Shown one piece after another: positions 3,288-30,755 of a DNA stretch of 64,000 nt. The notes under the pieces were generated by a model. The model was given only the letters and a program-made list of their open reading frames with translations, searched no databases and was not told where the DNA came from. This DNA comes from Yuukianura sp. NJ FZ-2021 (lineage: Eukaryota). The stretch lies in assembly GCA_046563655.1 (NCBI GenBank), contig CM102288.1:6386001-6450000 (forward strand), in the 5' to 3' direction. The position numbers and the translations under genes were made by a program. The stretch's first letter is position 1; each line of letters opens with the position of its first letter.

Positions 3288-6200
3288 TTATAATTTGGAG
3301 TAAGTTGGAGGAGAGACCCACTTCCGAACGAACTTGGCCAAGTAGATCGGCAGACAGGACAGCGTCGTGATCAGCAACACCTTCCAGATGAACGGAAACG
3401 AAAAAATAAAAGTAGCATCTGAAACAATTTCAAAAAAAATGTCAAACTCAAATTCCAAAACCACACAAATCGAAAGAAAAGTCTCATTTTTTTAATCTTA
3501 CCAAAAAACTGGTAGAAAAGAAATAGCGTGCCGACGTAGAAGAGCAACGAAATAAACTCCGCCACCAGCATCACTGTCAACATAACATTGGTAATTAGCT
3601 GATTTCGAATCAAGTAACTAATTAACTTGGACTAATCGATTAATCATAGCTTTTCCTTACATTTGTGCATGTTTCTGATGGTGAGTGCGACCATGATGAG
3701 TTCCGTGAGGATGAGTGACGTGAATGAGATGGACACGATATGAATGAACTCATCTTGGAACAGAATGAGACTCCCATACATGATGACAGAACCTTGAAAA
3801 ACGGAGATGAGGACCCAGAGGAAGAACGTTTTGTAGGTCAAAGATCGACCTTTGCCCAGCTCAGAGTAAAGTTCAGGCAGACGCATCAAGTCAGCCTCCT
3901 TCACGTCCTGGTCCAACACAAGCGCAAACACAGGAAACATCGTGTACACTGTAGCATATCTGCAAAAACACAAAAAAAAAGTCAAAAACTGAAAATTATT
4001 CTACTTTTTTTTTCCAATTTTTTTGAAAAACTGACCCAATCATGAGGAATCCTTGGTAGAGCGCCACGGAAGAAAAGTAGAAGATGGAGGAGAAGACTGC
4101 TTGCATCACAGTGATTATGAGACCGCGATGCATCACAAACTGTGCAAGAGACGCTGATCGCTTGTAGCAGTATCGTCCATGCACCAACTAAAAAAAAACA
4201 AATAAAAAAATACATTATTAGTTTTCACAAGGATGTTACAGACGCGTGCTAGGGCTTGGCCTCAGACTAACTCAATCGTCATACTTTCTGAATCATGATT
4301 TTTTTCCCCTAAAAGCACTACTGTAGAAAGTTGGAAGGTGTAGTAGGATGGTGTTTTAAAAAACAATATGTATTTTGGAGCTTTTTAAATTTCTATAAAA
4401 AAGGAAAATGTACTTTAGTGAATTTGTTAGCCTAATCCTGACTTTATCCAAAAGTCCTTCTGTAGAAAGTTAGAAGGTGTGATAGTGTTTTTAACAACCC
4501 AATCCCCAGCAAATTTCAAACTTTCATAAATGAGGAAAACCTGCCATAAGCAGGTGATTGTGTTATTTTTCAGCATTAGGAAAATATTTTAGAAAGTTTA
4601 AACCCACACAACACTGACAACTTTTAAGTTGAAAAATTTGAGAGAAAAACAAAACAAATGAATTTAGTAACTTTGGAATTCCGGATTTACCTTACGCGTA
4701 GTTTCTCATTAGTATAAAGGATTTAGTTAATTACATTTATCCTTAGATTTTGATTTAAATTCATCGTATCTTACCAAAAGAGGAGCGATGAAGCTGAACT
4801 GCGTGATGGAGAAATCTGCTGCCAAACTGGCTTGTCTTCCCTCTTTCCCTTCCAGCCCAATTCCAGCGTCAGCAGCCTGGATCATGGCAACATCATTCCC
4901 TCCGTCTCCAATCGCTGCTGTCCTCTTCCCCGTAACTTCCTGGACCAATGTGACCACTTGTGCTTTTTGGGTCGGAGAGCATCTACAAACTAAACAAAAA
5001 CAACATTAGTTAGTTAATCATCTTCAGATTAGGATAGTTTTAGATTAAGGTAATGTTGACTCACCTACTACTGCTGGACTGGCACAAGCCAACTCCATAA
5101 ACTCCTTTTGGTAAGATTCTAAACAAACTTCCAGCGATTCTCCCTTGATGATCAGTGGAGAGGAGTCTGCCCGTCGCTTATAAGCGTTGAGCTGCGCAAA
5201 GGCCCACGCTCTCTCAGTCAACTCAGACTCTGGTGGTTTTTCCTCAAACACAAAAACTTCCTGCTGCGAACTGACCAGTTTGGAACTCTTGGCAATGCAA
5301 ATGGCAGTCTCCAGCTTATCTCCAGTCAACATCCAGATCTTGATCCCAGCATTCCGCAGAGTCTCCAGAGTAAACTTCACATCTACACACAAAATTCTGT
5401 CATTTAAATCCATTTTCGTAGGAATTGGTGCGAAATCAATTGGGCCGAAAGAATTGGATCATAAGTTCGAAAACTAGTTGGAAAGTACCTTTCTGCAGAG
5501 TGTCTTCTACTCCAGTGACTCCAATGAGGTCCATATCTTTCTCCAGAGAGTTCATGACCTCCGTCATGAGATTGGCTCGATCTGTTTTGCTCGTTTTGGC
5601 GGCAGCATATCGTCGTTCAAATTCTGTGTAAGTTGCCAAATCCAGTTTCCTCTTGGCCACAACGAGAGTGCGCAGACCTTCTCTGGCCATGTTCCCAACT
5701 GCCTCCTCCAACCAATCATTGTAACGCACAACACTCTTCATCACCACATCTGCCCCCTTCAGGTAGAAAGTCAACTCCTCCCCCTCCTACGAAATGCAAT
5801 AATATAAAATATATAAAACAGTAAAACATAATATAAATAATATAATTTAAATAATATAGTATAAATAATTACCTTGACGATGATGCCCATTCGCTTGAGA
5901 TCCGACGTGAAGGGGAAGATGTGCAGAATTGAAACGTGGACAGTGAGACCGAGGTCAGTTGCATGGAGAGTCATGCTGGTCTGGTCTCTCCTTCGCAGCG
6001 ACAATCCAGCATCCATCGCCCACTTCACAAGAGCAATCTAAACAGTGAAATATATTTCATATTTCATATTATATTATATTTATATTTTATATTATATTTT
6101 TTTAAGATTAAGTTACTTCGTCAGGACTGGAAGCCTGGTACATGACTGGCATTTCCACTCCGAATCCCATTTCTGGATCTTCTTCCATGGGATTTGGGCT

Positions 6201-9612: not shown

Positions 9613-12600
9613 AAATTTTTCCGTAAAATATTGACTTAGACGTTAATTGACTTTTCGCATAAAAAGTTAAAAATATTACGTTAATCGACATTGAGCGCAA
9701 CTGTTGTAAACCAAAACGGCACAGCACTAAACCAAAACTTTGCCTATTGCCGGTGCAATTCGACTTAAATCTTTATCCAGTTGCTGGGTTTAATATTGGG
9801 ATCATTTCTGTAAACTTTCATCCCCATGTACACGACAGGTCATGGGTAACTGCGGGTCGAATGTCACCATGCTATCCTATAACCACCCCATGCAAATAAC
9901 ATATCGTTGAAAGGATATCCTCTTCAATCCCTGATTCAGAAAATGTATATTTTGCTTTGTACGGTGTAACCCAAAGAAGTTGTGATTAATTCCGGAATTG
10001 AAACTTCCATTGCTACATGTCTCTAAGGATTGCAGCGATTAAATATTTACTTATTATAATATTTATTAATAACTGGTTAAAAACTTCACTCAAATCGCAC
10101 CGGCAAAGATTTACGGGGTTTTGTGCCAGCTCCTCTTGCAAGTTCATGTTCAGCAAAGGAGATAACCGGATATGCCCGGTGTTTTCGGCCGCGGACAGAC
10201 TTTGCTCTTACAAATAAAATGTACTGCTGAAGTTGTGTAACGGCGGCTTAATATGAAAACTGACCTGTTTGCTTGGAATTGCTCCATCCCCTGCCTCTCC
10301 ACCTGTTGTTGTGCGAGACATGAGATGACTTCAGAACTGACTTAAAAACTAGTCACTCATCATGAAACACCATAAATAAATCTCCGAAATGAATCCGAAA
10401 ACCTGATCTAGAATTAAAAATTTCTGTGTCAACCTTATGAATACAGTTGGAATGAATGCCGTGTGTGACTAGTAATGGTAAACGGTAACTGCGGACAGGG
10501 AGTACTTTGTTTCTTTGTGGTTTGAGGTTTCCTACACTTCCAAAGTGAAGCTTCCGCCCGAAGGAAGGAGCTGCGGACGTGATGATGACGAGAGATGCAA
10601 TACCCAGTCAACTATGCAGATCAACAAAAGATTTTGCAAGTAAAACAAATTCTTCAAAGTAGATGTTTGTAATAAGATCTTGTCCTTTTTGTTCCAAAGG
10701 CCACAAAACTCGAAAACTTTAACCTAACGTCCACACCAAAACGTTCCAGATATGAGGCATGACAGACGAGGATGTACCGATCCTCCACTGCGCTCAAATA
10801 AATGAACAAACCGACAACCGATGAGACAACGATTTAACGGCCAAGCTTCTAATCTAACAAAAGCCCATCCGGGGCGAAAGAATGGACCCTAAGGGCCTAA
10901 AAACTAAAGGTACCGAGGGAAAAAAACAGGGCAAGCCAGTACATGGCCTATAATCATTGTCTGGTCATTGCGACTTTTTAGAGGTAATTTTTTTTCGATT
11001 TCTCTCAAAAATGTACTTGACCTTGACCGTTGACACGGAAGTTGTCCAGTTCCGGTCAAACCGGAAACCAATTAATCATCTGCACACCATGTGCAATTTA
11101 TCTGTGAAGACAGACTGAAAATCGGTCCAGTGGTTCCAGGGGTAGCCTGACCACCAGACAGGCAGACAGATCCTGGTAAAAACATAAAGTAGCTCATACT
11201 TCCGCTACTTAATACACACCCATATATTTCTTGCTCCAGTTGAATAGTATCGTAGGCAACTCGCAACGGATAATTCCATAGAGGAGTTGCGGATAATTTT
11301 CCAAATGTGGGAATTTCGTCGAGCCTTGATAAAAATGAAAAAGTTTAAAGTGAACGATTCAATAGCTTTTGATTTTTAAATAACACAACGATAGCGTTAT
11401 CTCAAAATAAAAACGTTAAATTTCTCAAATTTGACGCGGTTTTCAATGCAACGAAAACTGCCGCTTAAAAAATTTTCTGCAAATTTATTTTTGGAAATTT
11501 ATTAATATAATGAACCACGACAAGATTGCTATAGCGACCATTTATACTAAAATGGTGTAAGAAATGGCGTAAAAATATAAGAAGAAATAAACAAAATTTT
11601 GAATTAAACAAGCTTGGAACCACGAAATTTACCAAACTAGTCAAACATTTTCAGAAACTGACAAATATGGATGTTAATAATTGACTACCGTTTCACTGCT
11701 ATTTCAAACATAAGCAACTGTTCTGCATCCTATACACACGTTTCGGACTAAAACTGAGTTTGAATACCATATTCGTATTTCTCATATTTTGAATTGTTTA
11801 AGCTTTTTGTGTTTAATTCAAACCCCGTGAACATAGTTCAGCCCCATTTTTTCCATTTGATATCTATTGGCGAATTCTCGAAAAAGTTGATTTCCGGTAA
11901 TACTGATGGTATCGAATGAACGTTGGTTTTAGTCCTACAGGTTACGAGGTTTTCAAGATTATTTGATGAGGTTTCCTAAATCCCACGAGTATTGAACAAA
12001 CTACTTCTCCTAAAAGCCGTGCTTATAGCTGAAGGTTTATTGTAGTATTATGTGATGTGTGCTCATCATTCATAATACTAAATTTCACATTAACTTATTT
12101 GTGCTAAAAATTTATTTAAATTTAGGTGTAACCTATAGGTACACCTAACGCTGTAAATATTAAACAACTCTCTCCTCCTTCTTATCACTTTCAATTGAAG
12201 TTACCGTAAAGTTAACATTTTGGAAGGGACAGATGTTTCCATTAGTAGATAAATTTTTTTTACTTCTTGTTGGTATTGTTATTTCCTGCTTGTGGTTAGA
12301 CATTTCCTTTTGTTTTGTCCGGTTTTCGCAGAAACACAAGTACTTAATAATCAGTGTGATTGGTAAAAGGCGATGACCAACTTTAACAAGAACTCTTACG
12401 GTACAGGGTGAGCAGCCTAATTTCGGTCCTCCAATTACCGCTTGTTTTTAATTTATAGCATCTACTGTATTGTGTTTTATTGTAAATCGTACGAGAATTA
12501 CTTTTGATTAGATCTCTATACATTTTTACTGATAGATCTCGAAAATTGGGAATGGTTTATTAGCTGTAAAAAAATATAATTTCTCATGCTTTGCTGAACA

Positions 12601-12613
12601 TTCAAAAAATAAG

Positions 12614-12642
12614 TATATAAGCACTGCACGTCGAGTTCAGTT
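12614..12642 (+). promoter_or_regulatory. TATA box + arthropod Inr, probable core promoter of the terpene synthase
   Basis: TATATAA at 12614 and TCAGTT at 12637. The same arrangement is conserved in the duplicate at 26605/26629, upstream of the terpene synthase pseudogene. Confidence 0.6.
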
Positions 12643-12743
12643 ATTAACTTATTCACACCGCACAGTGTCGTAGGATACAGTCAAAGTAGAAATTTTTTCT
12701 ATGCCCATTTTCTTTTTTTTTTATTTAAATATAAACGATTAGA

Positions 12744-13211
12744 AATGAACCAAATTGCTCCTAAACCCGAATTGGACAGAAACTTTCCACAAAACCGAAA
12801 ACTCGGAATTTCGGAATTTTCAAAGTTTTTGGGCATTATGGTAGGTTTTCTATGATTTTTTTTTTAACTTCAAACGGATATTTTTCAAAATCTGAGTTAG
12901 TGTGGATTTTTAACTTTTCTCCTCAACTCTCAATTTCCATAGGCATATTCGAAACATTTATACGGGATTACTTAGAATATGCTTTTGAGGCATCATCTCA
13001 AATTTGGCTCCGACGTTCCAATAAGTCACTGTAGCTCCAATCAATTTTGTTACCGATTGCGGACATCGAACCGTCTTCCGCAGTGAAATGTTGCATCCAG
13101 TAGTTAATATCTGAGCAATAATTCAAGAACCATAAAAACTTCCAATTTCAGAGTTTCCGTTTTTTCAAAAACGTCCGCACAATTCGGTTTTTGGGATCAA
13201 TTTGGTTCATT
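12744..13211. mobile_element. Degenerate inverted-repeat element in the probable 5'-UTR intron of the terpene synthase
   Basis: AATGAACCAAATTGCTCCTAAACCCGAATTG at the left pairs with CAATTCGGTTTTTGGGATCAATTTGGTTCATT at the right. Confidence 0.55.
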
Positions 13212-13321
13212 ACAAAATTTAATTAAATATTCAAGCAATTTGTAATAAAATATTCATTCCGACTTTGAGTAGATTTCACGAAACTGTTCCACATCTATTT
13301 TATTTAGCTTTTGAAATAAAA

Positions 13322-14520
13322 ATGGAAGGCGTCACTGACGAATGTAAGAGTAGAAAATTTGCTAGCCGGAGTCAGTAATTGTTTCAAAGTGAGCGATACC
13401 TTAACTTTTATTCAAAATGTTTTCAGTTGTTCATCAAGAAGGCAAGGTTGAATTCGACATAGCAATCTCTAACCAACCAAATGGTGATATTCGTCTCCGC
13501 GGGACTTTTCCTCGCATTAAACCGCGAAAGGAGCGACCTGAGGTGGATGGAGAAATTATCCAAAGCCTCCTGTCCAAACTTTTGAACTGGATTGGTGAAT
13601 ACTTTGACATCTCAAAACGACGAGAAGATTTCCAAAATCTCGCCACAACTTGTGTCGTGTTTGCGGTTTATATCGACCCTTGGTCATCTTTTGACAGTGA
13701 TGTGATGGAACTGGAACTCCAATTTACCTTTTGGTGTAGCGCAATTGACGACTTTATTGAGAGATCTCCACCTACGGCGGTGAAAATGATTCGAGATCAA
13801 AACGAATATTTTCAGCGAATATGGCACCAAGATGACACAGACCTTGAACCTCCAAAAGAAGTCTGCGACTTGTTTGTTCCATTGTGTAATTCTTTGGTGG
13901 CAATTCGTGACCGAATGCGATTATTCGCAGGATTCGAAGAGGCGTTGCCTAAAATACTTTATTATCGTAGGAAGTACGACAGGGCAGCAGAACTTGTTTG
14001 CTCAGTTCGGAATCAGGCATTTCTGAACGTAGACATGTTTAAATATTGGAGAAATATTGTATTCTTTATGGAGGGACTTGTCCTGACCTTTGCCGTTCTC
14101 CATGACATTGTTCCAGGCAAAATGGCATTGGAATCACCCTATATGGCCAGATTATTTTTTCTCGCGCAAGCTTATGGATTCTTAACCAATGATTTGTTAG
14201 GAGTCAAGAAGGATGTTCAAACAAAGGAGCAGAATTTTGTCTTGTTTATGCTGAAGGACAACCTGGAACAAATCGACCTCCAGAAGAAGGTGAATCTATG
14301 TGTAGAACAAATTTGTGAAGAACTAAAAGAACACGTTGAGGAATACATCGATCTTAGAGCCAGAGTTCTAAATGCCTATCCCTCAGACGCAAAATTAGAA
14401 AAGTTTTTAGATTTCTGTGACGCTGGTATGGACGGGCAATTACAGACATATGTGCAGGGTTCAAGGTACTTACTAACTCCTAGTGATTCAGTCATTATGA
14501 AACGTTATGTAAATGATTAG
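13322..14520 (+). CDS. Class I terpene synthase of microbial type (Terpene_syn_C_2-like), 2 coding exons
   Basis: ~370 aa. IDDFIE (DDxxD/E, ~13747), a conserved Arg (WRNIV), NDLLGVKKD (NSE/DTE variant, ~14188) followed by N-F-V, and C-terminal GSRY. Exon 1 (13322-13343, MEGVTDE) splices via GTAAG...TTTCAG in phase into the long ORF at 13427. Confidence 0.85.
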
Positions 14521-15160
14521 GAATACAAAAATACTAGAACATGAAACGAAGCAAGTACGTTGTAAGTTTGTTAGAAACAAAAATAGATTTGTAAAAACAG
14601 ATGACAATTTTGCATGTGGAATTCAATATACGCGGTCATGCACATCGTCCGAAACTATCCTGGGAGCCTATTTCTCGACTTTGTTGACGAACGAAAAAAA
14701 ATTCCTCCGTGGTGGTCTACCACATATAATTTTTTAAAAAATTTTTGGAGGGAACTTTTCCCTCCAAAAATTTTTTTTTCCTTATCTCTTTTTTGCTCCT
14801 TATCTCTAAAAAAACCCTTTTCCCTCCAAAATCGAGAACTACGACAAAGTCGAGAAATAGATACACACAGGGCATTGCTGTGTTAGGTATGGGAGGTTTC
14901 GGACGATGGTCATGCATAGCATTGAAAAGCTATATCTCCGAATTTAAGTTTCATTTATTTCAAATTGGTTGAATATATTAGAAATCGAACACTAATGTTG
15001 TGTTTAACATACTCGTACGATTCCAAGCTTGTTTAAATAGAAATTTTGTTTGTTTTTTCTTAACAACATATATCAGCTACTTTTTCTGTTTCTTTCCAAT
15101 TTTTTGAAACGCACATCTGGCGAAGTTACGTTGTGGTTGCAATTGGAACACAACCTATAA

Positions 15161-15256
15161 ATGATGAGGGCTGTAAGCCACTACTGCCCCCGCAAATCTC
15201 AAGTTGCCCCAGGTATTTATGACATGAAGTCAGTAGTGGCTTACAGCTCTCATCAT
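15161..15256. repeat. Short hairpin / mini inverted repeat
   Basis: ATGATGAGGGCTGTAAGCCACTACTG pairs with CAGTAGTGGCTTACAGCTCTCATCAT (26-bp arms, 1 mismatch). Confidence 0.7.
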
Positions 15257-16426
15257 ATATATCAGAACCGATAAATTATAGAACTTTAAGAGATTATTGT
15301 AAAAATCAACAAAATTGGTAAAAAAAGTTGTTTTTTTCTGAAGGTAAATAGAATGATACTAAGTAGTAATAGCAGAAACTTTGTTAGGGTACCGCGGCAT
15401 TTTTTCTATGCGTGACTCGTTAAAAATTCCTGTCATCGACATATAAAAATTCTAGCCAACACAAGCGCTATATGGGTTTCTTTAGGATACTATCATTACT
15501 CCCGGAGTTCTGGTGTTTTTTCAACGACTGATGTCACAAACAAAAACTGCATTGGCTGCTAAAAGAGACGGACACAGTGTGCTGGTTCTTTCTTGTTTTT
15601 TTTAGTCCAAAGTTATGTTATATCCTATTGCTGCATTTGTACAAATGGCCGCTACAGCAACCTTGTAGGATTCTGGGGCGGCAACTGCCCAGGTTTCTGA
15701 ACGAAATTGAACAGTTTTTAGCTACTGTTAGTTGACAATAGCCAAAAGCTAGATACCGCAACCGTGATTGTATAGTAAGCTTTAAGAAAATTAAGATCCA
15801 ATCAATTGTCAGAAATGGTAGTCTAACTAATTCCAATGGCACCACGTTACTTCAACTGCAATAACTGCCATTTAAAAATACGCCACAATTAAGTTGCGTT
15901 GAAAAATTTAAATTGATTGAAGCGCCGTCCTTTCACTTCCTAACCTTAACGAATTTATCCCTCCCGCGTTTTTGTCATTTAACTCAATGACAACAGAGAG
16001 AGTCTGGGGAGGAATTTGAAAGTTAGCAAATGACTACTCTGAGCGAGTGAGTTAGAATGAAAAGAAACCTAGTATTTAACTGCGCTGACTAGTATAGAAT
16101 TTCACTCACTTAAACACTAAATATAACCTGTCAGTTCTCAAATTTGTTCCACAAATTAGGACCCGAATGAAGCAAACTTTTACTATCAAACCATTACGAG
16201 AATTTTAAACATACTTTTTAGCTCTAACGTTAGTAATAGAATAAATTTTATAAACGCTTTTGACCAACTACTTCAAGTATTTCAACCCACTACGAGCAAA
16301 TTGGCAGGTATGTCCGGCAATTAAGAAAAGTCTTATTGTATGTTATTGGTGAAACTGCATCCGCAGACTGTTAATTCAAAGCCGTATATAAATAGCAGTG
16401 TTTACAGAAAAGCGATCTTAACGAAA

Positions 16427-18951
16427 ATGCTTTCAAAGAAGGAGTTTGACCATTGCCAGACTATCTTGAAATTCTTTTCAAAGGTTAAGTTTTGTGAATT
16501 TGGTTCCCAAAACAATTTATTATGTCGAAACGACTCAAAGTTAAAGAAGGTTTGGAATACTTTCGCAGTTGTGGCTTATGGCTTACAGTTGTGGCAACTG
16601 TATTACGCAATCCAGCGAACAGCTGCTGCTGGAAATCTTTTCCATAGCTTTTTTCAATGTGGAACATGCGGATATATTGTTGGAAGGTTGGGCGTCTGGG
16701 CAACTGTTCAGTTGTATGAAGGAGAGACGGTGCAACTATTCAACATGATTTTGCTGATGCAGAAGCAAGGTGGAATTGTGTTTATTGTGGCATAGCATGT
16801 AGTATGGCATGGTGGTATGGCCTGACATTGTCGCATGGTGGAGCCATGTTTTGTAAATGTATTAAAGTTTATTAGAATTAAATGTATCGGAAACCCCTTT
16901 TTATATCAACTTTGACTTGCTGACCTGCGGTTGACCGATGATCTCAGCAATGAATCAATATTTTCTGGATCAGATTTACTAGTGAACAACGGCAGAGTGG
17001 GTATTAACTAGTGAACATCAGCATGGTGAATCATATATAATTTCAGGCGAAAGGTCTAGCTCAGCAGGTTTTATCCCCGATATAAATGTTATGTATAAAA
17101 GTTGTTCATCTCTCATCTAGACAAACAACTTTTATGCAAGTTACCCTAGTTGAGCTACTTTGAAATCAAATGTAAACTTATAAATTTTTAGGTTGGGTAA
17201 CCTGGTAAAAATTTGGTTCAGTTTTGCCAGTGTGAATGTTATGTACCACCGTTTTTCACTAATTTTCACGGTTTACAACCGATAGATTGAGGGTGAGGCC
17301 ATTTTTAGAAAGGTTAAGGACGTGTGGTATGCGTCTAATAAACCATAATCGTTAAATTTAGTAACCACGATAACCGAGCTTTTGCAGTTAGTAAAAGATG
17401 CAGACATCGACAAAAAGAAACACCCTCGTGAGTGGTGAAAAAGGATCAGTGCAAAGGTGATCAAAAAAAAGTATGCACTTTCAAACAAACAAAATACTGA
17501 CACAAGTTCGGTTGCCGTCGTCTGGGTTTTGTCAACAACTTTTCTGAGGCTGCGACATTGAAATTGAAAAACGTTCTGGGTCAGCGTAGGAATGTACAGT
17601 GACCCACAATATATCAAACTTTAGCAAAAGACTTGATCTAGTACCCCGCTGAAGAAAAATTACAAAATTTTAGTTCTATCTGTGTAAATATGGAGGTGGA
17701 ATGTTTGGGTCAATTTTTTTCACAGTTAGAACGAAAATTTTGTAATTCTTCTTCAGCGGGGTACTAGATCAAGCTTTTTTCTAAAGTTTGATATATTGTG
17801 GGTCATTGTACGACCTTCCTACGTTGATCCAGACCATTTTTCATTTCATAAGTTACAGCCGCATGTTGACCCCCAGTTTCCAGGGATTTCGCGAGCCTTA
17901 AGTAAACAAACTGGTGCAAAGGTCGTAAGATTTAGGTTTAGGTCTAACCTCACACTTTTTTGTATGACTTACTGTAAATGTAACAGTTTAGAATTATAGT
18001 ATATTTTCTTGATTTTGTGGGTAAATCTTTTCATCTCAATGAGAATATGTTTTAATTTCCAGGGGTACGCTATTTTGGAAAAGAATACTCTGCTGACACA
18101 AATTTAACTAGCAGGGCTACGACGTGCCTCAAGTACATTTTGTATTTCATCTACACGTCTCATTTCATTCTACAGTTTTTTATTAGAAATGAAGTATCGA
18201 CTCTGTTTCTCGAAGTCAAAGAGCGTCTGGGTCTGGGCTACATCAGTAGCACCTTACTGTTCTTGATGGTACATGGAGCTTTACACATCGACTTGGCCAT
18301 CCATATACATTTCTATATCTGTCTGATCTACATGGCCCAATTTTGTCTTTACTTTTGGACTAAAGTTTCTTGGTGAGACAAAAACATAAATTATAAGCTC
18401 ACAAAAATTTCTTATTTTGTATTTCATTTAATATTTGTTTCTTTTAATATTTATTTATCATTTGTTTCAGCGTCACTTGGCCGATTGAGGCAAAGGATAG
18501 CGCTAGCATTGACAAAATATTGCATGTTTATAATCAAGTCAGAATTTTAAACGACATGAGCAATACAGTGATCGGAAAAATTGGTGGACTAATTTGGAAG
18601 ATTACTAGTTTATTGGCAGTTGGAATTTCCCTATACATTCTCATCCGGCTGAACGTCAAAATCAAAGACTTAGGGTTATTGATCACTTTGTTTATATTAT
18701 TAATCGGTGGTACCTTTGGGTCATTTGTCATTTGTTGGATTATGGCTAAGTTGTACAAAGTGTCATTGGACTTGAAGTGGAACATCTTTCGGAATGCGGA
18801 GCTGTCAAACAACAAGCTGAATAGAAAAATAATTTCGAGCCTTCCCGTAGTTCGTTGTAGTTTCGGCGGTGCCTACTACATAGAGGACAGAGCGAGACTA
18901 ACGGTATTGGACACAATCATTCAAATCGTGGTCTTTTTGTTGTTGGCATAG
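16427..18951 (+). CDS. Gustatory-receptor-like 7TM chemoreceptor, 3 exons
   Basis: Exons ~16427-16770, 18063-18372 and 18471-18951 join in frame via GT-AG (~380 aa). Multiple hydrophobic helices; YNQVRILND motif; GR-type C-terminus RCSFGGAYYIEDRARLTVLDTIIQIVVFLLLA. TATATAAA at ~16385. Confidence 0.75.
17548..17860. mobile_element. Palindromic non-autonomous element in intron 1 of the GR-like gene
   Basis: GTACAGTGACCCACAATATATCAAACTTTAG...CTTGATCTAGTACCCCGCTGAAGAA is mirrored by TTCTTCAGCGGGGTACTAGATCAAG...CTAAAGTTTGATATATTGTGGGTCATTGTAC; arms ~130 bp. Confidence 0.75.
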
Positions 18952-20684
18952 AGCATTTCGAGTTTCATTCAGAACCTTTCAACCGAAAGCAGAAAATTAT
19001 TGTAGTTCAAAGCGACTTGTAGCTTTGTAGTAGTACATTGCTTTATATGAAAGCTTGTTGCAAAGAATTTGGTTATATTGTATGCGATACAAGTATTTTC
19101 TTAACCCATAAGACCACAATTGCTGACAAAGTTTAACTTCAATATGATTCTTGGATGTGATACACTTGTTGTATTCGCGACAGCAACATTTAAGGCATTA
19201 AAAATTCATTAGATAGGTACCTTGGAAGTTTTGTTGGTATGCTTAAATATGCAGGTGACGCATGTAGAAAAATAAACGAATAAAGTACGAAGAATAAAGG
19301 TTTGAAACGACTTTGGGGCACGCAAGAACAAACAAGATAAAAAATCAAACGTTGGCAAACAAAAAATTTACTAGAAATCAAGAAAACTTTCAAGCCATGC
19401 AAAATTTAATAAATAAATCTTTACTCAAGTTCATTTGTTTTTTTATAAGTTGAAATATTGAAATTAAAGTTAAACAACTCATGTTCAATTGTGTGGTACA
19501 GCACACCTTTCAACAGTTACTAAAAAACCATCAGATAATTCCACTTTGAATCATTTTGCTACTGAATTTTTCTTCTTTGTTGTTGTCGCAACGTTTAAAG
19601 TTGCAAATGAAAATGTACTACATAATAGTACTATGATGTACTGTACATGTGCGTAGAACTCGGTTTTTTCTCAAAACCAGTTCACCGGTTTTTTTGATTG
19701 GTTGACATGGAAATGAAATTAACATGTATAGCGGTTTTTATTTCTATGAAAAACACATATATGTGTCATCCCAAAGCAACAACCGCTCGTGAGACTACCT
19801 TAGTAATGCGGTGTGTGGGTGTGTCTTTTTTCTGTTTCCGTGTGTCATCTTGGGGCTGTACTCGGGTCAGGGGGTGGCAAAAATGCCTTAGCGACCAAAA
19901 CCGATTCTTGAGTTGTTTACAATTTCACTCGCAATGACGTCACTCCAAGTGAAAATACAGGTTCATCCGAGTTTTTAAGCTATTTTTATGTTTGCGGCGA
20001 AGGTATTGAGACTAAAATGATGAAAATGTTGAACAGCACTGTAAATGAGTGAACTCGGACTGAAAAAAATCTCATAGCAACTCAGTATTGAAAAAGGTTT
20101 TTCATTTGCCGAAGGCAATTGTTTTCACAGATGAACTTCACATGGTCCAGGGGTGAACAAGCGGTATGCCGTTTAACCGGAAGCGACCAACTTCCGAGGT
20201 CAAGTACATTTTTTCACGGAAATGAAAAAAATGATCCTTACAGAAAGTGTTCATCATGAGACAACAACTCCGCCACCTATGACCTGGTGATTCAAATGTA
20301 TTAATCATGGTCACAAACCCTTATCTACAATTCGATACTTAGTTACGGCGTTTACAACGGTTTATTACCTTTAAATGCATACCTGTAACGACATACATTT
20401 AGGAGAAATTGTCTTATGTATTATTTTAACTATTATTCTAGGTACTATTGCTTTTGGTTTAACTGAACATTTTACCCCAGCGCAGAACCCTCTTGTAACA
20501 CCTGCTCGTATTAAACCTGAATGATACTCTTGAAGCTACTACTTAGGGTTATTTTCTCATTAGAAGAATTTTCTACAAACGTTTACAACATATTAGAAAC
20601 TGTTTTTATGAGCCAAAGCCACGGATTAGTTTTATTTACTAAATTAGCGGAATAAAATAATCGCATTGGCACCCTTTAACATTT

Positions 20685-22096
20685 ATAATTGAACGGAAAA
20701 AGGGGCAAACTGAAAATTGCAATTTGGGTTCCTATGGGTAACGATTTGCGTATTTCTGGTGAAATCGGACAAAACAAGGTAGGGCGATGCTCAAGGGTTT
20801 GATCATAGGTCTTCTGGAGGGAATTGACAATTGATACGACATTTAGACTGCCCTACCGCAAAACTGTAGACAAACTGAGAAACAGTTTTCATGGAATTAA
20901 AGCTCTAAAACGTCGCTGAAAATTTTCAGTGGGAATATGAGATCCTATTTTATGTATGAGTTGCACCAAAATTGTCTTGGCAATTTTACCGTTTAATTGA
21001 ACCAAAATCATGTTAAAGTTTTGAGGCCTAAAATATCTGCATTGAATTGATGTTGTTAATTTGGTGTGCACAAAATGCACAAAATTGAAAACCACCTTAA
21101 AAAGAAGGTGGTCGAATATCGTTCTTGATTCATGTTCTTCATTTGTTGAGGAAGATGCACATAATGTATTGTCAATGTTGTCATGGCAATGCTCACGGTA
21201 GTTCTCAAACCTGCACAAACCTTCAATTATGTGCATCATGCACAAAATTGTACGTTGTGGGGTAGGAGTCCAATATCGTTTCTTTAAAATCAAAATTATA
21301 AAAATTTCTTGCAAAAGCAAATTTGAACCCTGCCATGCACTGTTTACATGTTACAGAATTTAAGCCAGAATTTGTACCCCCTGACAAGGTTTAATTTAAC
21401 AACGTAATTAAACATACTGCCAGAAAAAGACCAGATCAAAACTCCGTTGTTTATAAATGGTTTGAGTGCAATCGAAACCAAAACAGTTTCGCGAAGCCAC
21501 GATACTGCGGGTACGTAAAGTAGCCGCCCACTTGTACGTTGTTAATGTACGACTTTGAGTGCAATGTAGACGTACTGAAAACTCTTGAGCCATACATAAC
21601 CCTCCGTCAATAATGGGGCTAATGTTTCAGTGAAAAGGGTACTAAAAAAGGTTACAGACGGACGGACGGACAAAGTCGTATCAATAGTCTTCTTCAGCAC
21701 GTCGTAGACGTGCGTCTCCAGAAGACTAAAAATGTCGGGATACGACAACACTGCGTGTGCGTAAAGTGGCCGCTCACTTCGACGCTGTTAATTCTAGAAT
21801 TTTAGTACACTGTAGACCTACTGAAAACTCTTGAGCCACATGATATAACCCCCCGACTGCGATGGGGCTAATGTTTCAGTGGAAAGGGTCCTAAAAAGTG
21901 TGACGGACGGACGGACAAAGTCGTATCAATAGTCTTTTTCAGCACGTCGTAGACGTGCGTCTCCAGAAGACTAAAACTCTAAATCGATGTGAAAAACCGT
22001 TTTTTCGCCTGGCTTTGTTTGTTTGAGAAGTGAAAAAGAAAACCTCAAAACAACGTTTTTCAGTTTGCCCCTTTTTCCGCGAAGGCATTCAATTAT
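20685..22096. mobile_element. ~1.4 kb non-autonomous TIR element with an internal ~230-bp direct duplication
   Basis: TIR CGGAAAAAGGGGCAAACTGAAAA at 20694 and its reverse complement ending at 22079. Internal direct repeats at ~21505-21735 and ~21750-21977 (GACGGACAAAGTCGTATCAATAGTC...CTCCAGAAGACTAAAA). Confidence 0.65.
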
Positions 22097-22597
22097 GTAG
22101 CATAGTTGATTTCGGCAATTTGACCTAACTGCGACGTTTCTACGGCTCGCTGACATTGATATCTTAGTAAAACTTCTTTTGGTTTAAGTCCAGCATGCTA
22201 AATCAAATTCTTAATAAAAAGTTGTTTTCAAAAATAAAGCCTTGAAAACATGGCTAAAGAAATTACTTAAAGAGTTGAGTCACTTGATTCTAAACTCTAG
22301 CAGTTGTTGGTTGTTTTTAATTATATCACGTTATGAATGGTTCCCTACACAAATATAAGATTCGTCTATATCTTATGTGGATTTTTTGTCAATTGCTGCG
22401 TGGTGAACCACAATCAGGCAACTGTCAGTTAAAATCCTCCGCCCAAATACTAACGTCCATGGTATCAATTTTGCTTTTTAGCATAGAATTGTTTTAAGTA
22501 AAACTAGTTTCCACATTATATCTTTGAACACTTACTGTACTGGTAGAGGTCAGGCAGGACGCTGCTCGTAAGAAACTACGAAAAACACCAGTAAAAA

Positions 22598-24668
22598 ATG
22601 GCAGTTGCTTTTGTTGTGATTAGTGGAATTGCATTTGTTCTTGCGATTGTATTGCTAGCTATTGCTAAAATTCAAAGGCCAAAAGGATTTCCTTCGGGTA
22701 AGTGCAACTCTTAATTAAGTTACAGTTAAACGAGAACATTATAAAATAAATTCAAAATTCTCGTTAGGAATTGCCTATGAAAGTTAAATTCTTAAAAACA
22801 AATTGTGTATTAAGGTCCTCTGTCTTTCCCAATTATTGGAAATTTGCTGCATATTGGATGGGAAGAACCATGGAAAAGTTTTGTTGAAATGGGTCACAAC
22901 TATGGTGGGATTTTTACTATCGACTATGGATCATACCGTTCCATTGTAGTCGATGATCTTAAACTGCTCAAACAGTGTCTGAATGAACCATCGTTGGCGG
23001 GAAGACCCAGATTTCCAGTATTCTTAGAAAGAACTAATCCGGGAGGAACTTATTCCCGAGGAATTCTTACAAGTGAATTACAACACTGGAGCGAGCAGCG
23101 TCGATTTGTGCTTAAAAATTTGCGAGATTTTGGTTTTGGGAAAACGTCAATGGAGGGATTAATCCAGGATGAATTGCAAGAGTTTTTGAGAAGAATGCGT
23201 AAGCGAACAGGAGTACCTGTCAAAACTCTTGGACTCTTCAACGCAGGTAAGTCAAAACAAATATAATTGAGAAGTAGAAATTGGAACCAATTTTATTCAA
23301 TTTTGCGTTTTTTTTTATACAATTTTTAAACCAAGCGGTGGTTAATTCGTTCTGGAGAATTTGTACGGGATCTCGCGTTTCACAGAATGATCCAAAGCTT
23401 GCAAAGCTCATCGCGGCACTGATCGAGTAAAATTTTGAAAAAAAAAGGCAAAATCAAATTGACGTTTGTTAGCTTGAATTTTTTTTTGCTTATCGCCACA
23501 CAGTGGATTTTCGGCTGCAAGTCCATTAGTATTCTTTTTTCCGAAGTTGATCAAATGGTTTCCGGCCCTTGTTGGATACAACGACGTTTTGGTTACAAAT
23601 AAAATTTTGTGCGCATTTGTCACTTCCGAGTACAAGGCTCATAAGGCATCCTATGTTCCTGGACAGCCACGCGACCTTCTGGACGTCATGATAGAAGAAG
23701 TAACTGCAACCACTGACCCGGAGTCTTCTTTTTACAAGGACGAAGGAGGTAACAGGTCGAGGTCAAAACCATTTTATTCTTAGGATCATTAAATTTTTTT
23801 AATTCTAGAAGCAACTGTCATCATAACTTTGGAAGATCTGTTCGCTGCAGGATCTGAAACAGTAAGTTTCTTTATGATGTTTCAATGAATAGCACGTGAC
23901 TTTTGACCTTTGCCTCAACAGACCAGCACCACTTTAACTTGGATTTGTCTCCACATGGCTCTATTTCCTGATGTACAAGAAAAAATGGCTGAAGAAATTT
24001 CCAAGGTCATCGGGCCAACCAAAATGCCTGAATTAAGTGACCGCACGATGATGCCGTATACGGAGTGTGTGATCATGGAAGTACTTCGATCGGTTGCGGT
24101 TTTCCCACTTGGTGTAATGCACAGCGCAACAGCAGACACTACTATCGCTGGATATCTTATACCCAAGGACACCGTTTTCACGCCCAACCTTTACAAAGTG
24201 TTGCACGACCCTGCAATTTGGGGCGATCCAGAAATTTTTCGGCCTGAGAGATTCTTGGACTCAAACGGTAGAGCTAACAAGTCACATGAAGCCTTCATTC
24301 CATTTTCCTATGGAAGAAGAGTTTGCATTGGTAACGACAAAGGATGGAATTTTTAAATTGAAAAGTTTTAAATTTAAATTAAGTTCAGAATTTTGTTTTT
24401 CAAAAAAATAATTTTTGTCCGAATTTTAGGTGAAAAATTGGCAAAAGATGAACTGTTTCTTTTCACTACCGGGTAATTGAATACAACTAGTATGAGTTAA
24501 AACTGAATCTCATTTTTTTTTCTAAATTGTGTTTCAAATGTTGTCAGTGTTTTCCAAAATTTCCGTGTCACTACAAATCCAAAAGCGCCGAAGCCAAGTT
24601 TGAAACCAAAGCCCACGATTGTCCTCAGTCCAAAACCCCACGAACTCATTTTTCACGAAAGGGCATAA
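22598..24668 (+). CDS. Cytochrome P450, CYP2 clan, multi-exon, apparently intact
   Basis: N-terminal anchor plus FPSGPLSFPIIGNL hinge, WSEQRRF C-helix with LRDFGFGK, I-helix DLFAAGSETTSTTL, EVLR (ExxR), FRPERFL, heme motif FSYGRRVCIGEKLA; ends HELIFHERA*. Confidence 0.95.
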
Positions 24669-25339
24669 ATAACACAAACTCCAAGCTAATTAAAATGAAA
24701 AAAGTTTTAAATAAATTGACACAAACCTGTTATCCTTCGATTCCAACTTAGATAATTGTTTAAACAAGTAAAATAATACATAATAAATCACGAAATTTCA
24801 GTATGTAAATGTTGTTTTTCTTCCCTACCATTATTTTTTTTTCTTTGAAGTTTCTAAAATCTTGTTTCTTTTTTTTCCAAAGGTTTCAGTTTTGGATAAA
24901 AAAATAATTCAAGAAAATTGCAAAATCCATTGCTTAACTTTTACACTTATATCTTTATGTCCTAGTTTAGTTCTTTTAAAGATAATGAGATTGATCTGCT
25001 CCTTCTCCTTATGTAAATCACTCCAAACAACTATCAGAATTCGACAGGCTCAAAATAAAATTAGAAATTGATTGGGAGGAAAAAAAACTAACTGACATTG
25101 ATTATTATTTTCTAAACGGCGTCGTGTTCGACAGATTAAAAGCTGGCTCGGTTGTTAGACAAGTTGTCAGAATTGTTAAAAATTGAACGTTTGAGTTAAG
25201 AAACGACAAAAGAGAAAAGAAAACGTCTGCAAAAAGATTAAGGTCGTCCTTAAGTATTGAGAATGGGTCTGTGACAATTGATCTGATAGCTTTTCTTAGG
25301 TTAGGTTCTTAAGTATCACAACACTGAGGTGTATACGAT

Positions 25340-25650: not shown

Positions 25651-26604
25651 GTATACGATTTGCATATACCGCGGTTATACAGCGTTCCGAATGCACAGAA
25701 ATTTTGTTTCCCCTCTTGCACCGTCCATTCTCCATATCCTAAAATACAAATTTTTGGAGTTGTACTATTATGGTCGATTGTTGTGGTTGAAAATTAGGTT
25801 AGCTTGATTCAACAACGTCTTTTGTAAGTTTTATTTCAAAAACTTTGGAAACTTGAAACGAAAAAAAGGTTAAGCTTACTGTCCTTGTGATTTTGATCGC
25901 AGATTATATAACTATTTTAAAATGAAATGTAGGAAAAGAAATTTCAGGAATCGAGGGTTATGAGAACTTAGAAATGAACCGTGGAAAATTGGAAACCACC
26001 AAATAAATCAAGAGGATGGAAACGCAGTTCCATAGAGATCGGACAGCTGTAGGAAAAGCGTTTGTTCCCTATTTCTAAATTTCTAAGTCACCAATCAAGC
26101 CTATGTTAGGTCAACCTACGTTAGAACAAACATAATTTTTGAAGTTATATGATTTGTGAGTGCAAATTGTATGTTTTCTCATTCCAAACCTTTCACATCA
26201 TTTGCCCTCTTGTTTGAAATTTATTTTTAACTAGGCAACTACGTCGTCAATGAATTAAGTCACATTAACAAATTAAGTTCGTCTTTTCTAAACGGCAGTT
26301 TAACTAGTGACCAAGGTCGTAATGATCCTGAACTGGGCATGTTCCAGAGCATGCTCCACTAAACGCACAGTCAAGATTACCACAGTCGCAACAGTCTAGA
26401 ATTTGACGTTGACTAGAATCTAATTGATTACAACTAGACGGACTTTCACCACGATTTGGCTGGCGTTCACAAGGATTTGACTGACTTTGAATAGCATTTG
26501 GGTGACCTTAACGAGATGGGTGATAGGCCTCCTAAATTACAAATGGTTCGTTAGCATGAGAAAAAATTATTCCTTTTTACACGCATTGTTAGTGAAAAGC
26601 TAAG

Positions 26605-26634
26605 TATATAAAGCAGAGCGTTTCGGGTTCAGTT
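26605..26634 (+). promoter_or_regulatory. Duplicated TATA + Inr core promoter upstream of the terpene synthase pseudogene
   Basis: AAGTATATAAAGCAG...GTTCAGTTATTATCTTCTTCACACCACACAG closely matches AAGTATATAAGCAC...GTTCAGTTATTAACTTATTCACACCGCACAG at 12611-12665. Confidence 0.6.
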
Positions 26635-26675
26635 ATTATCTTCTTCACACCACACAGATCCACTCAAAGCAGCAA

Positions 26676-26798
26676 TTTTAAATTTCAGCCCAATCGGTAG
26701 AAAAATGGCGGACTTATAACGAATCACCGCTTTAACTGCTCGCTATAGAATTCGCTATAACACGGCCATTTTGCAACCGATTGGGCTGAAATTTAAAA
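26676..26798. repeat. Short inverted repeat (hairpin)
   Basis: TTTTAAATTTCAGCCCAATCGGT pairs with ACCGATTGGGCTGAAATTTAAAA. Confidence 0.7.
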
Positions 26799-27040
26799 AA
26801 CTTTTGTGTGGTAAGCTATTGCTTCCAGTGGAGCAAATGTGAGAATAAACTCAAGAACAACAAAGACTCCGAATGTCGGATTTTTCTCTTCTTTTTTTTT
26901 AAATTTTGATCCAATTCGGTTCTTGGTACAATTTTGCTCACTACCGAACAGTTTTTAATTAAATTCAAGAAAAAATAATTTCCACTTTGAGTGGATCTCG
27001 AGAAGCATCTCATTTTAGCTAATATTTATCAGCAGAAGGG

Positions 27041-27800
27041 ATGCAAACCATCTCTGATGTATGGTAGAGTACCAAATTTCTTAGTACAAATCATAATTGC
27101 TTTGCACATCGAAACTAGCTCGTCGAAAAAGTTTTCCGGCGTCTATCAAAAAAACCACAAACGGAACGGCCTGGCTCGGATGTAAAATAACTCCAAACCA
27201 CGTTTGAATACGTTGACGTTTCCAAGCGACGCCACTTCCAGAATCTCGCCACAGTTACTATTGTCGAGTAGTTTACACAAAGCCTTGGACAGCTTTGGAC
27301 AATGACGTTATCGACCTCAACATCAAGTTTATCTTTTGGAGCCAGAGAGTACTTCATGAGTATGTTGAAAGATATCTGTCTAACGTCATGATATATTTGC
27401 GTAATTTTTCATTCTAAAATTCGTTCCCACTGGTAAAACAGTGACAACGAAAGATTGTTGTCAGGTATATGCTTTAATATGCAGGTCACTTATGTCAAAG
27501 AACTAAAAATGTGTTTAGTAACACAACAATTTTAAGTTTATTTCTCTTTAAGCATTTAGTTACACAGGTTCAATGTTGTCCTATGTCACTATATACTCAA
27601 ATAACGTCAACGGGATCCCTCCCGAAAAAAATGTACACAAGATACATTATTTTTTAGATTCTTTTACCCAAGGTATTGAATATTTACGTACAAATGGACT
27701 TTTATTTAGTGTACCGAGATATTTGGTCATAAATTTCTGGAAAGCATATTCGCGACCATATACGACACGAACTTGGTTATAGTTTCAAAGTAAAGCATAG
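27041..27800 (+). pseudogene. Decayed terpene synthase paralogue
   Basis: Manual translation of ~27150-27350 gives KPQTERP ... EYVDVSKRRHFQNLAT ... VYTKPWTALDNDVIDLNIKFIFWS, versus KPRKERP ... EYFDISKRREDFQNLAT ... VYIDPWSSFDSDVMELELQFTFWC in the intact gene. Frameshifts and deletions are present, and the upstream non-coding DNA is also homologous. The 3' extent is less certain. Confidence 0.8.
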
Positions 27801-28734
27801 CTGTAAACTCTTGTCTTGTCATATACAAATCAGCGTATAGAAACTGATATCCACCTTGTAAATAAAATTTAAATGAAAATAGTGCCATAATAAATACTTA
27901 TGATACTCTATTATCCTTTGGTCCAAAGTAACAGTTGGAAAACTACTAATCGCGCAACTAACTCTACCACAGAAGTATGCAGGCCCTCTTCCGGTGTCGG
28001 AAGCAAAAAAAAAGATGATCTACTTAAAATGTCAGTTATATTAAAGAAAATAAGGCAATTTAATAAAAATTAATACTTTCCGAAATTCTTAGAAATAAAA
28101 ACTGGTATTGCGACGAAAAAATCCTTTGACTTTTATCACCTCTAGCAACTAAACTTAATTGGACTTGGAATTCTAATTGCATACTTTTCCAAGAAACCCT
28201 TCAATTATTTCAGGGTCTATTATTTGAATAACAAATTTAGGTACAAGATTTCGTTTCCGCTTTTTGAAACTTTCAGAAATAACGATTTTGGTTTTCAAAA
28301 TTTTTGCCCCATAATTTCTTACAAAGAAATGAATTTCCCAGCGTCCACTTTTACGTGCCACACCCTGTATAATTCATTGCATGTATTTATGCGCAAACGG
28401 TCACATCCAACAAAACCAGTAAAAAAAAATTCTAATAATTGAAAAAGTTGTCAGTGTTCTATTCACACAAGACACGATTGTCGTTTCTTTTGCGCCAGAA
28501 AGCTACGGTGAGAATTTGATTTTTATTTCTATTATTATTATCAAAGTAAATTGCTTAGAGTAACCGCTGTTTCGAAATAACTCGAGGAGCACTGCCACCA
28601 GTATTTTAAAAATGGCGGGCATATCCTGCTATTAGGAATAGTGTTACATCGTGTAATTAGTAAAATTGTTTCAGGAGGCTTACTTAAAAACTGTAAATAA
28701 ATAACTTTTTCAACTTTCAAAGAACCCATCCAAA

Positions 28735-29046
28735 ATGCTCTCAAAAAAAGAATTTGACCACTATCAAAGTACTTTCAAGTTCTTTTCAAGGATAAAGTTC
28801 TTTCCATATCGTTCCAAAAACAATTTGCTATGCCGAAACAAGTCAAAGGTCAAAAAAGCGTGGAACTACTTTTTTTGTTGTGGCTTCAGGCTTATAGTTG
28901 TGGCAACTGTTTTATGCCGTTCAGAAAACAGCGAAGACGGACAATTATTTTATACTACGTTTCAAACTGGAACATTCCTATATGTTGTTACAAGATTTGC
29001 TATCTGGGCTACCCTTCAGGTCTACGAAGGAGAGACGATCCAACTA
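28735..29046 (+). pseudogene. Truncated copy of exon 1 of the GR-like gene at 16427
   Basis: MLSKKEFDHYQSTFKFFSRIKF...NNLLCRN...WATLQVYEGETIQL versus MLSKKEFDHCQTILKFFSKVKF...NNLLCRN...WATVQLYEGETVQL. The middle is frameshifted and restored; the copy is then cut off by repeat DNA. Confidence 0.85.
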
Positions 29047-29304: not shown

Positions 29305-29887
29305 CGTAGCAGGTCATAAGGGCTAAACCAAAAAGGGCTACTCCAATAAGGGCTACTCAATAAGGGCTAAAAAAAATAAGGGCTACTCCAATAAAGGCTA
29401 CTCCAATAAGGGCTACTGTCAATAAGGGCTACTGTCAATAAGGGCTACTTTTAATAAGGGCTACTTAATTAAAGCGTATTTACTTATTTTCCCGCGCCGA
29501 AGGCGCGGCGTTAGGTTATTTAATTTACAGTAGTGATTAGTTTTTAAAATGAAAGCCTAACCTAACCCCGGGCATCAACGAGGCCTGATGCAAATTACGA
29601 AGAAGTCTTGATTTTTAATTTGATATATTTTCTACAGCGATTAGGTATAAAATGCGGGAAGATAACACTGGAAGTTAATTCAGCAGGTAATTGAATTAGC
29701 GGTTATTTAAACTAGCCCTTATTAAAAGTAGCCCTTATTAAAAGTAGCCTTTATTGACAGTAGCCCTTATTGACAGTAGCCCTTATTGGAGTAGCCTTTA
29801 TTGGAGTAGCCCTTATTTTTTTTAGCCCTTATTGAGTAGCCCTTATTGGAGTAGCCCTTTTTGGTTTAGCCCTTATGACCTGGAACC
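29305..29887. mobile_element. MULE/foldback-type non-autonomous element with 9-bp TSD and AAGGGCTA subterminal arrays
   Basis: TSD TGCAAAAGC at 29296-29304 and 29888-29896. Ends CGTAGCAGGTCATA...TATGACCTGGAACC. ~160-bp near-perfect inverted arms made of AATAAGGGCTACT units. Confidence 0.9.
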
Positions 29888-30604: not shown

Positions 30605-30755
30605 GAAGAGCCTTTTTAACAAAGAATCCCATTGTGTCAGGTTCATCCACAAAGAGTGGGTAGAACTCTTGTAAGAAGTGGAGAATGATGTCACCTTTAC
30701 GCTCAAAAACTTTTACAACTCCATCCTCAAAGCCCACAAAAACCACACAAGCAGC
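30605..30755 (-). pseudogene. Fragment of an ionotropic receptor paralogue (S2 region)
   Basis: Minus-strand translation VFVGFEDGVVKVFERKGDIILHFLQEFYPLFVDEPDTMGFFVKK matches AFVGFEDGFMTVFERVGGSTLHFCQEFYSLPVAEPDTVGFCVKK of the IR at ~33080-33220. Other exons are not evident. Confidence 0.8.

Follow-up and report, generated by a model that had tools for sequence, protein, structure and literature searches.

A divergent microbial-type terpene synthase gene and its clan-2 cytochrome P450 neighbour in a probable springtail genome

The stretch of DNA analysed here, 64,000 nucleotides of contig CM102288.1 (hereafter the window; GC 0.39, no N), carries three genes that follow one another on the plus strand: a terpene synthase (TPS) gene, a gene for a multi-pass membrane protein and a gene for a cytochrome P450 of clan 2. 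Three such genes had been placed here by the original prediction, and the models obtained in this work, i.e. an open reading frame (ORF) for the TPS, three exons for the membrane protein and eight exons for the P450, all run without stop codons. The TPS stop codon (14520) and the start of the P450 gene (22598) share a strand and are separated by 8 kb that contain a single gene. The same window contains parts of a tyrosine kinase of Fes/Fer type, with FCH and kinase domains, of an Ig-bearing receptor kinase and of ionotropic glutamate receptor (iGluR)-like genes. The host is therefore an animal, which agrees with the earlier description of the locus.

The main exon of the TPS gene (13427..14520, +) is defined by a contig boundary at 13427, the ORF, a match to the Pfam family Terpene_syn_C_2 (PF19086), conserved motifs and a structural model. 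The open frame (13405-14520) comprises 371 codons in DNA of 39% GC and, read from its first ATG, encodes an uninterrupted protein of 367 aa (P0001, 13417-14520). The protein reaches 26.8 bits against PF19086, for which the gathering score is 23.7, and the match spans residues 103-304 and profile positions 2-198 of 199. An Asp-rich motif, DDFIE (residues 111-115), fits the DDxx(D/E) metal-binding form, the second metal-binding triad, NDLLGVKKD (258-266), is a variant of the NSE/DTE motif (N/D)Dxx(S/T)xxxE, and a C-terminal RY pair occupies positions 350-351. Residues D111, D112, N258, D259 and R350 are invariant across an alignment of 13 TPS family sequences, ten of which have Gly in place of Ser/Thr within the triad and 12 of which end it with Asp or Glu. 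R212 is located 46 residues ahead of N258, a spacing that we take to be that of the diphosphate-sensor arginine in bacterial cyclases.

A word-index homologue search with the TPS and a single-sequence phmmer search of P0001 against the PDB gave no match. A profile built from the 13 family members matched solved class I cyclases, best of all 10-epi-cubebol synthase (7zrn, E 6e-25), and also T-muurolol and pentalenene synthases. The AlphaFold model computed from the same 13-sequence alignment (pLDDT 87.0, pTM 0.88) has an all-alpha class I fold. Its comparison with the PDB by Foldseek yielded 222 matches with E<=1e-3, and every one of those listed is a class I synthase; pentalenene synthase (E 3.5e-8), BcBOT2 and CyS rank at the top. 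Judged by its family match, motifs and modelled fold, the protein is a class I terpene synthase of microbial type, as originally claimed, and is predicted to be active. In addition to the helical core, the model contains an N-terminal beta hairpin (residues 8-34, window about 13438-13518), the region of which holds a conserved PRIKP with family-invariant P32, R33 and P36, and an extra C-terminal strand (residues 358-363, window about 14488-14505). Both elements lie outside the alignments of the model to solved microbial synthases.

The 5' end of the gene was examined with contigs from four sequencing runs (X1-X4) of one sample and one study; X4 is recorded only as 'DNA?' and none of the four as RNA. 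In run X4, a contig of 1332 nt is identical to the window over 13427-14672 and then diverges; the boundary lies directly behind an AG acceptor and 10 bases downstream of the ORF start at 13417. A GT donor at 13344 would delimit an 83-nt intron (13344-13426) and a short 5' coding exon of 22 nt (13322..13343, +), which begins with ATG 13322 and continues in frame (phase 1). Four related loci on metagenome contigs (L002-L005) have a matching layout, with a short 5' coding exon and a GT..AG intron of ~70-85 nt ahead of the conserved start of the enzyme body, so that the metagenome gene calls P0002-P0005 probably have wrong N-termini. The 5' exon and the 83-nt intron are probably present in the window gene, the donor being read from the sequence and the acceptor from the contig end. 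The GC content at third codon positions (GC3) is 0.40 in the TPS and 0.39 in the P450, and a DNA contig of run X1 covers 11526-14671 with zero differences. Because of the similar GC3, the spanning contig and the putative 5' intron shared with relatives, we regard the TPS as a resident eukaryotic gene and not a contaminant.

An exhaustive phmmer search with the TPS over 1.84 billion representative proteins found just 23 relatives at E<=1e-3, the best being 31% identical. Ten relative clusters were looked up, and the two that carry an organism name are both from the springtail Folsomia candida; one member of a Folsomia candida cluster is annotated as '(+)-germacrene D synthase'. The PF19086 gathering score was passed by each of the 13 relatives scanned. 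A tree was built from 16 rows, all of them from the match list of the window TPS itself, with mite, gnat and microbial sequences outside its scope. In this tree the window TPS forms a clade (support 100/99) together with two proteins from metagenomes, and this clade is nested among the two branches of Folsomia candida; the terminal branch of the window TPS has a length of 1.57. On these grounds the gene likely belongs to the springtail terpene synthase (TS) clade.

Canonical TPS genes were reported in Collembola, mites and sciarid flies in 2024 (PMC11665903), and in 2026 a total of 277 TS genes were described (PMC13638087); they came from 21 of 26 springtail genomes, and 55% contain introns. 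Springtail TSs form a clade of their own, separate from those of mites and gnats (PMC11665903; PMC13638087), and four Sinella enzymes are active on substrates from farnesyl diphosphate (FPP) to geranylfarnesyl diphosphate (GFPP) (PMC13638087). The premise that such a gene would be unusual for an arthropod is thus outdated. The window TPS adds to an already published family a highly divergent new member, which is probably transcribed.

The P450 gene (22598..24668, +) encodes 497 aa in eight exons (22598-22697, 22815-23246, 23336-23426, 23504-23748, 23809-23861, 23922-24330, 24430-24472 and 24548-24668). The model, built by hand, has introns of 60-117 nt, all of them GT..AG, and no internal stop. 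It ends at the stop codon at 24668, exactly the end coordinate given in the original prediction. Two of the exons match Pfam p450 (PF00067) with 72.3 and 176.1 bits, and the spliced translation holds PSGP, AGSETT (the I-helix AGxxT), EVLR (ExxR), PERF and FSYGRRVCIG (the Cys-heme loop FxxGxRxCxG). The names found among the 120 matches listed, which are automatic annotations, include CYP2U1/2J/2C/2G-like, 17-alpha-hydroxylase-like and, in Orchesella, 'methyl farnesoate epoxidase'; the CYP2, CYP17/21 and CYP15 families belong to clan 2. In the full-length ranking the first two places are taken by unnamed proteins (42% and 40% identity). The best named relatives come from two springtails, Orchesella dallaii (42%, 352 bits) and O. 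cincta (40%, 342 bits), and the next named ones score ~280 bits. Profile matches, motifs and named relatives agree with the earlier assignment, and by its sequence the P450 is an intact clan-2 gene.

Contigs of run X4 skip 23862-23921 and 24473-24547 (introns 5 and 7 of the P450) exactly, with GT..AG ends, whereas those of runs X1-X3 do not, and X4 depth between the genes is zero, a pattern expected of a transcript library. Contigs of the same run also lie on the region of the membrane-protein gene (16332-16559 and 18737-19161). The two exact P450 joints and the X4 contig that ends at the TPS acceptor suggest that the TPS and the P450 are both transcribed.

The middle gene (16427..18951, +) has three exons (16427-16769, 18063-18372 and 18471-18951) that encode a protein of 377 aa. 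A hydropathy scan revealed, in the C-terminal half, five strong segments that are preceded by weaker ones, so the original description of a multi-pass membrane protein holds, whereas its label as a gustatory receptor (GR)-like protein with seven transmembrane helices was not borne out by Pfam, PDB and homologue searches. Scanned singly, the exons (114, 102 and 159 aa) showed no 7tm_7 or Trehalose_recp match up to E 10 and, among all Pfam families within that limit, only weak unrelated matches below the cut-offs. A homologue search among longer proteins found none, and a PDB sequence search gave chance antibody rows only (E at least 0.26). For a model of exon 3 alone (pLDDT 61.7), Foldseek returned 0 matches and VIA-align generic helical hairpins only (Z<=6.8), and the protein showed no significant similarity to two membrane-like ORFs on the related contig L001 (E 0.046 and 0.069). 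A language-model lead from Atlas, with a score of 0.90 and recognition below the tool's bar, points to arthropod clusters in which 16-40% of the members carry 7tm_7, and the last helix contains T..L...IQ, which fits in part the motif TYhhhhhQF of the seventh transmembrane helix (TM7) of GRs. With the language-model lead being weak, we consider the middle gene a candidate, lineage-specific GR-like chemoreceptor gene. Its intron 1 contains an inverted repeat resembling a miniature inverted-repeat transposable element (17594..17811; 95-nt arms, 92% complementary), and the bin around this repeat (17237-17803) has very high contig depth.

A self-comparison of the window revealed that a block A (12.5-25.1 kb) and a block B (26.5-31.0 kb) are collinear at about 70% identity. 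The matching pairs are 12530-12696 and 26521-26679, 13596-13734 and 27205-27339, 16298-16738 and 28609-29046, and 24839-25134 and 30756-31033. The last of these forms the right edge of block A (24839..25134, 70% identity to 30756-31033) and begins 171 bases past the P450 stop. Block B holds a TPS pseudogene fragment (27152..27405, +; tblastn E 8e-10), which covers P0001 residues 35-127 in two frames, is frameshifted and has lost the Asp-rich motif, as well as a paralogue of exon 1 of the membrane-protein gene (28735..29046, +; 51% identical over 104 aa, E 1.4e-28). No remnant of the P450 or of exons 2-3 of the membrane-protein gene was found in block B even at E<=5. Because the two blocks match again from 171 bases past the P450 stop, the most economical history is a single deletion from block B of these two exons together with the P450, and under this history the order of the three genes predates the duplication. 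The pattern of the duplicated blocks shows lasting linkage, not function.

Two further observations concern block B. An unspliced X4 contig of 1283 nt lies over the TPS pseudogene region (26700-27982) and may reflect transcription of the pseudogene remnant or of an RNA that is not annotated; the ORFs 27115-27408 (-) and 27552-27782 (+) within this interval gave no protein family. A 157-nt inverted repeat (29310-29466 / 29726-29882, 99% identity), made of 15-bp tandem units, is placed exactly where block B lacks exons 2-3 of the membrane-protein gene and the P450, possibly as a trace of the deletion or of a mobile element.

The spacers between the genes had been described as repeat-rich, and they are: in addition to the 95-nt inverted repeat, the contig depth of run X2 rises to tens to thousands of times a baseline of ~50 in the bins at 14.4-15.5, 17.2-18.4, 19.5-20.1 and 20.6-22.3 kb, and a 245-bp tandem repeat of 1.9 copies (21504..21976), situated in the spacer before the P450, falls in the bins of highest depth. 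Among 20 ORFs scanned, the 17 intergenic or flanking ones within 11-30.5 kb showed no further protein family, and a search of the whole window against Rfam gave 0 matches.

Based on these results, we suggest that the locus holds a functional-looking, resident TPS gene of microbial type in the genome of a springtail or of an animal closely related to springtails, and that the genes next to it are its neighbours by descent; we hold this to be fairly probable. By analogy with its family, the enzyme would bind a prenyl diphosphate (FPP, geranylgeranyl diphosphate (GGPP) or GFPP) via a Mg2+ cluster coordinated by DDFIE (111-115) and NDLLGVKKD (258-266), while Arg212 and the R350-Y351 pair would clamp the diphosphate. 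It would then ionise its substrate and cyclise the carbocation in the all-helical class I pocket, and its product may serve in the chemistry of cuticular, defensive or pheromone terpenoids. The membrane protein and the clan-2 P450 would not be dedicated partners of the TPS. The block belongs to an old tandem duplication, the other copy of which has decayed, and members of two expanded families are expected to come to lie side by side now and then by chance.

The adjacency of the TPS and the P450 itself is, in our opinion, probably incidental. Springtails have some 100-250 P450 genes. With this number, genome sizes of 109-582 Mb and about 13 TS genes per species (PMC13638087), a rough estimate is that a TPS has a P450 within 10 kb by chance in about one genome in five, and the caveat of chance adjacency that accompanied the original prediction stands. 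Eight related TPS loci on metagenome contigs, retrieved with a 5-sequence TPS alignment and with flanks of 0.2-6.6 kb, showed a P450 in 0/8 cases and a relative of the membrane protein in 0/8 (E<=0.01). In the literature found, and in term searches of PMC11665903 and of PMC13638087 with its supplement, there is no report of TPS-P450 clustering in springtails.

Several points speak against a resident springtail TPS with merely inherited neighbours. The springtail affinity is drawn from relatives of the TPS and the P450 at just 22-42% identity, and the triad of the TPS has Gly for Ser/Thr and Asp for Glu, although this is the norm within the family. The comparison of related loci is a weak test of synteny, as only L001 and L003 extend more than 3 kb downstream of the TPS and the P450 of the window lies 8 kb downstream. 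The spliced X4 contigs could in principle stem from a retrocopy. The pattern of the duplicated blocks fits the presence of the P450 in the ancestral block, and the three genes may have stayed together for long. Finally, some springtail terpenoids are oxygenated (sclareol, drimanediol, curvisetone; PMC13638087), so that a tailoring oxidase is needed somewhere.

The most probable alternative is that the TPS and the clan-2 P450 are a true biosynthetic pair, kept together by selection, in which a terpene scaffold would be made and then hydroxylated or epoxidised, as happens in the terpenoid clusters of octocorals, fungi and plants. Both genes are intact, co-oriented and 8 kb apart, with the membrane-protein gene as the only recognisable gene between them, and both are present in the transcript-like run X4. 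The homology of the duplicated blocks brackets the P450 (from 12530 on one side, 24839-25134 on the other), and the arrangement is probably older than a duplication that has diverged by ~30%. The closest named relatives of the P450 bear, by automatic naming only, the name of a sesquiterpenoid oxidase, 'methyl farnesoate epoxidase'; oxygenated terpenoids occur in springtails (PMC13638087); and on the metagenome contig L004 a TPS adjoins a homologue of geranyl diphosphate (GPP) C-methyltransferase, which is a case of physical pairing of pathway genes in this TPS family. However, none of the eight related loci has a P450 (a comparison of low power), block B has no P450 remnant, springtail TPS-P450 clustering is unreported in the literature found (as available for PMC11665903 and PMC13638087 with its supplement), the chance expectation is roughly one genome in five, and the window was itself selected for showing a TPS and a P450. 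On balance we consider a true pair unlikely. Slightly less likely again is its fullest form, in which a selected TPS-P450 pair would be the first arthropod terpenoid cluster, older than the ~30%-diverged duplication, and would yield an oxygenated springtail defence compound or pheromone.

It is more improbable still that the TPS is an intact-looking relic, catalytically dead or non-expressed, of a large and fast-turning-over family. A terminal branch of 1.57, an identity of at most 31% to any known protein and the decayed paralogue 13 kb downstream would fit such a relic, and some enzymes of this kind have proved inactive in vitro, namely one of five from Sinella (PMC13638087) and BcTPS4 (PMC11665903). 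Yet the window gene has kept an open frame of 371 codons in 39% GC DNA together with every metal- and diphosphate-binding residue, its model is confident (pLDDT 87.0), and a transcript-like contig covers it.

The proposal that the membrane protein is a chemoreceptor for the product of its own locus, which would complete a module that makes, modifies and senses a terpenoid, draws on the duplication of its gene along with the TPS, on the Atlas lead to arthropod gustatory-receptor-like clusters and on the resemblance of T..L...IQ to the GR TM7 motif, but it is hardly credible, as homologue, Pfam and PDB searches did not establish the receptor family, joint duplication of neighbours is the outcome of any segmental duplication, no homologue of the membrane protein was detectable in the flanks of the relatives, biosynthesis and perception normally take place in different cells, and we know of no terpenoid cluster that includes its own receptor. 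The cyclise-oxidise-sense module put forward in the original prediction thus found no positive support: a P450 was seen at 0/8 related loci (a weak test) and not in block B, and the receptor label was not verified.

A resident springtail TPS gene, the reading preferred here, can be set beside several known systems. In octocorals, too, a microbial-like class I cyclase lies near a P450 in an animal genome. These clusters, as reportedly described by Scesa et al. and by Burkhardt et al. in 2022, are said to be conserved across species and to have known products, whereas here there is one locus, known from genes alone, in which no conserved synteny was seen. The closest systems are the collembolan TPSs (FcTPS2/5 and AfTPS2, PMC11665903; ScTC1-5, PMC13638087), which are likewise animal nuclear genes, with or without introns, encoding the class I fold and motifs. 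They also belong to a multi-copy family with tandem duplication, and Folsomia candida is among the few detectable sources of relatives of the window TPS. The window TPS differs in being only 22-26% identical to the Folsomia proteins retrieved, a comparison in which the ScTC and FcTPS sequences themselves did not take part, and in having a P450 8 kb downstream, a neighbour of which no mention was found in the available parts of PMC11665903 and PMC13638087. The canonical TPSs of mites and sciarid flies (PMC6275457, PMC11665903) are likewise microbial-type nuclear genes of arthropods and belong to expanded families, but springtail TSs stand in their own clade, and there is no mite or gnat among the named relatives of the window TPS. 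With bacterial and fungal synthases (pentalenene synthase 1ps1, 10-epi-cubebol synthase 7zrn, BcBOT2 8h6q and CyS 7y50) the TPS has in common the alpha-helical fold (TM-score 0.62-0.70 on the query, 0.71-0.81 on the target), the Asp-rich motif, the NSE-type triad and the C-terminal RY. It is set apart from them by an identity of 12-18%, the Gly/Asp variant of the triad, the beta hairpin and C-terminal strand, and the 5' intron.

The metagenome contig L004 calls for separate comment. Its TPS relative (3072-4172, +) lies 1.5 kb from, and in divergent orientation to, an ORF of 345 aa (542-1576, -). Residues 93-344 of this ORF match geranyl diphosphate 2-C-methyltransferase (3vc1, 4f84) with E 4.5e-72, and its N-terminus is extended by a hydrophobic stretch. 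The contig looks eukaryotic because of its GC content of 0.385 and the 5' GT..AG intron that its TPS has in common with that of L005. This arrangement suggests the synthesis of a methylated (C11-type) terpenoid in a soil animal. Our literature searches, including the available part of PMC6275457, found no report of an arthropod GPP methyltransferase. The pairing also hints that physical linkage of terpenoid pathway genes may be a wider habit of the animal TPS family.

Elsewhere in the window, a divergent iGluR-like gene (32963-35479, -), with Lig_chan and Lig_chan-Glu_bd matches both below gathering, may encode a chemosensory ionotropic receptor and is part of the duplicated neighbourhood; an 80%-identical fragment copy of it (30594-30767, -) lies 2.4 kb away. 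The three-gene block is thus followed downstream by this iGluR-like gene, and upstream of it lies a P4-ATPase-like gene. There is also a single ORF of 300 aa for an M28 aminopeptidase (51462-52364, +; 114.7 bits), and a further exon (55707-56141, +) matches acetamidase/formamidase (FmdA_AmdA) with 45.7 bits. Enzymes of these types are more usual in microbes, and the two may possibly be further horizontally acquired genes. A tandem array at 40180-40895 has a period of 65 bp and about 11 copies; the self-comparison gave an identity of about 96% between adjacent copies.

The terpenoids of springtails have unusual structures, and it is only recently that their biosynthesis became accessible; mention of a tailoring enzyme was not found in the available parts of the springtail TPS papers (PMC11665903, PMC13638087). 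The locus illustrates the turnover of the TPS family by tandem duplication followed by decay. If the P450 did act on the TPS product, it would offer a direct route to an oxygenated springtail terpenoid, and animal terpenoid gene clusters would be extended from octocorals to arthropods.

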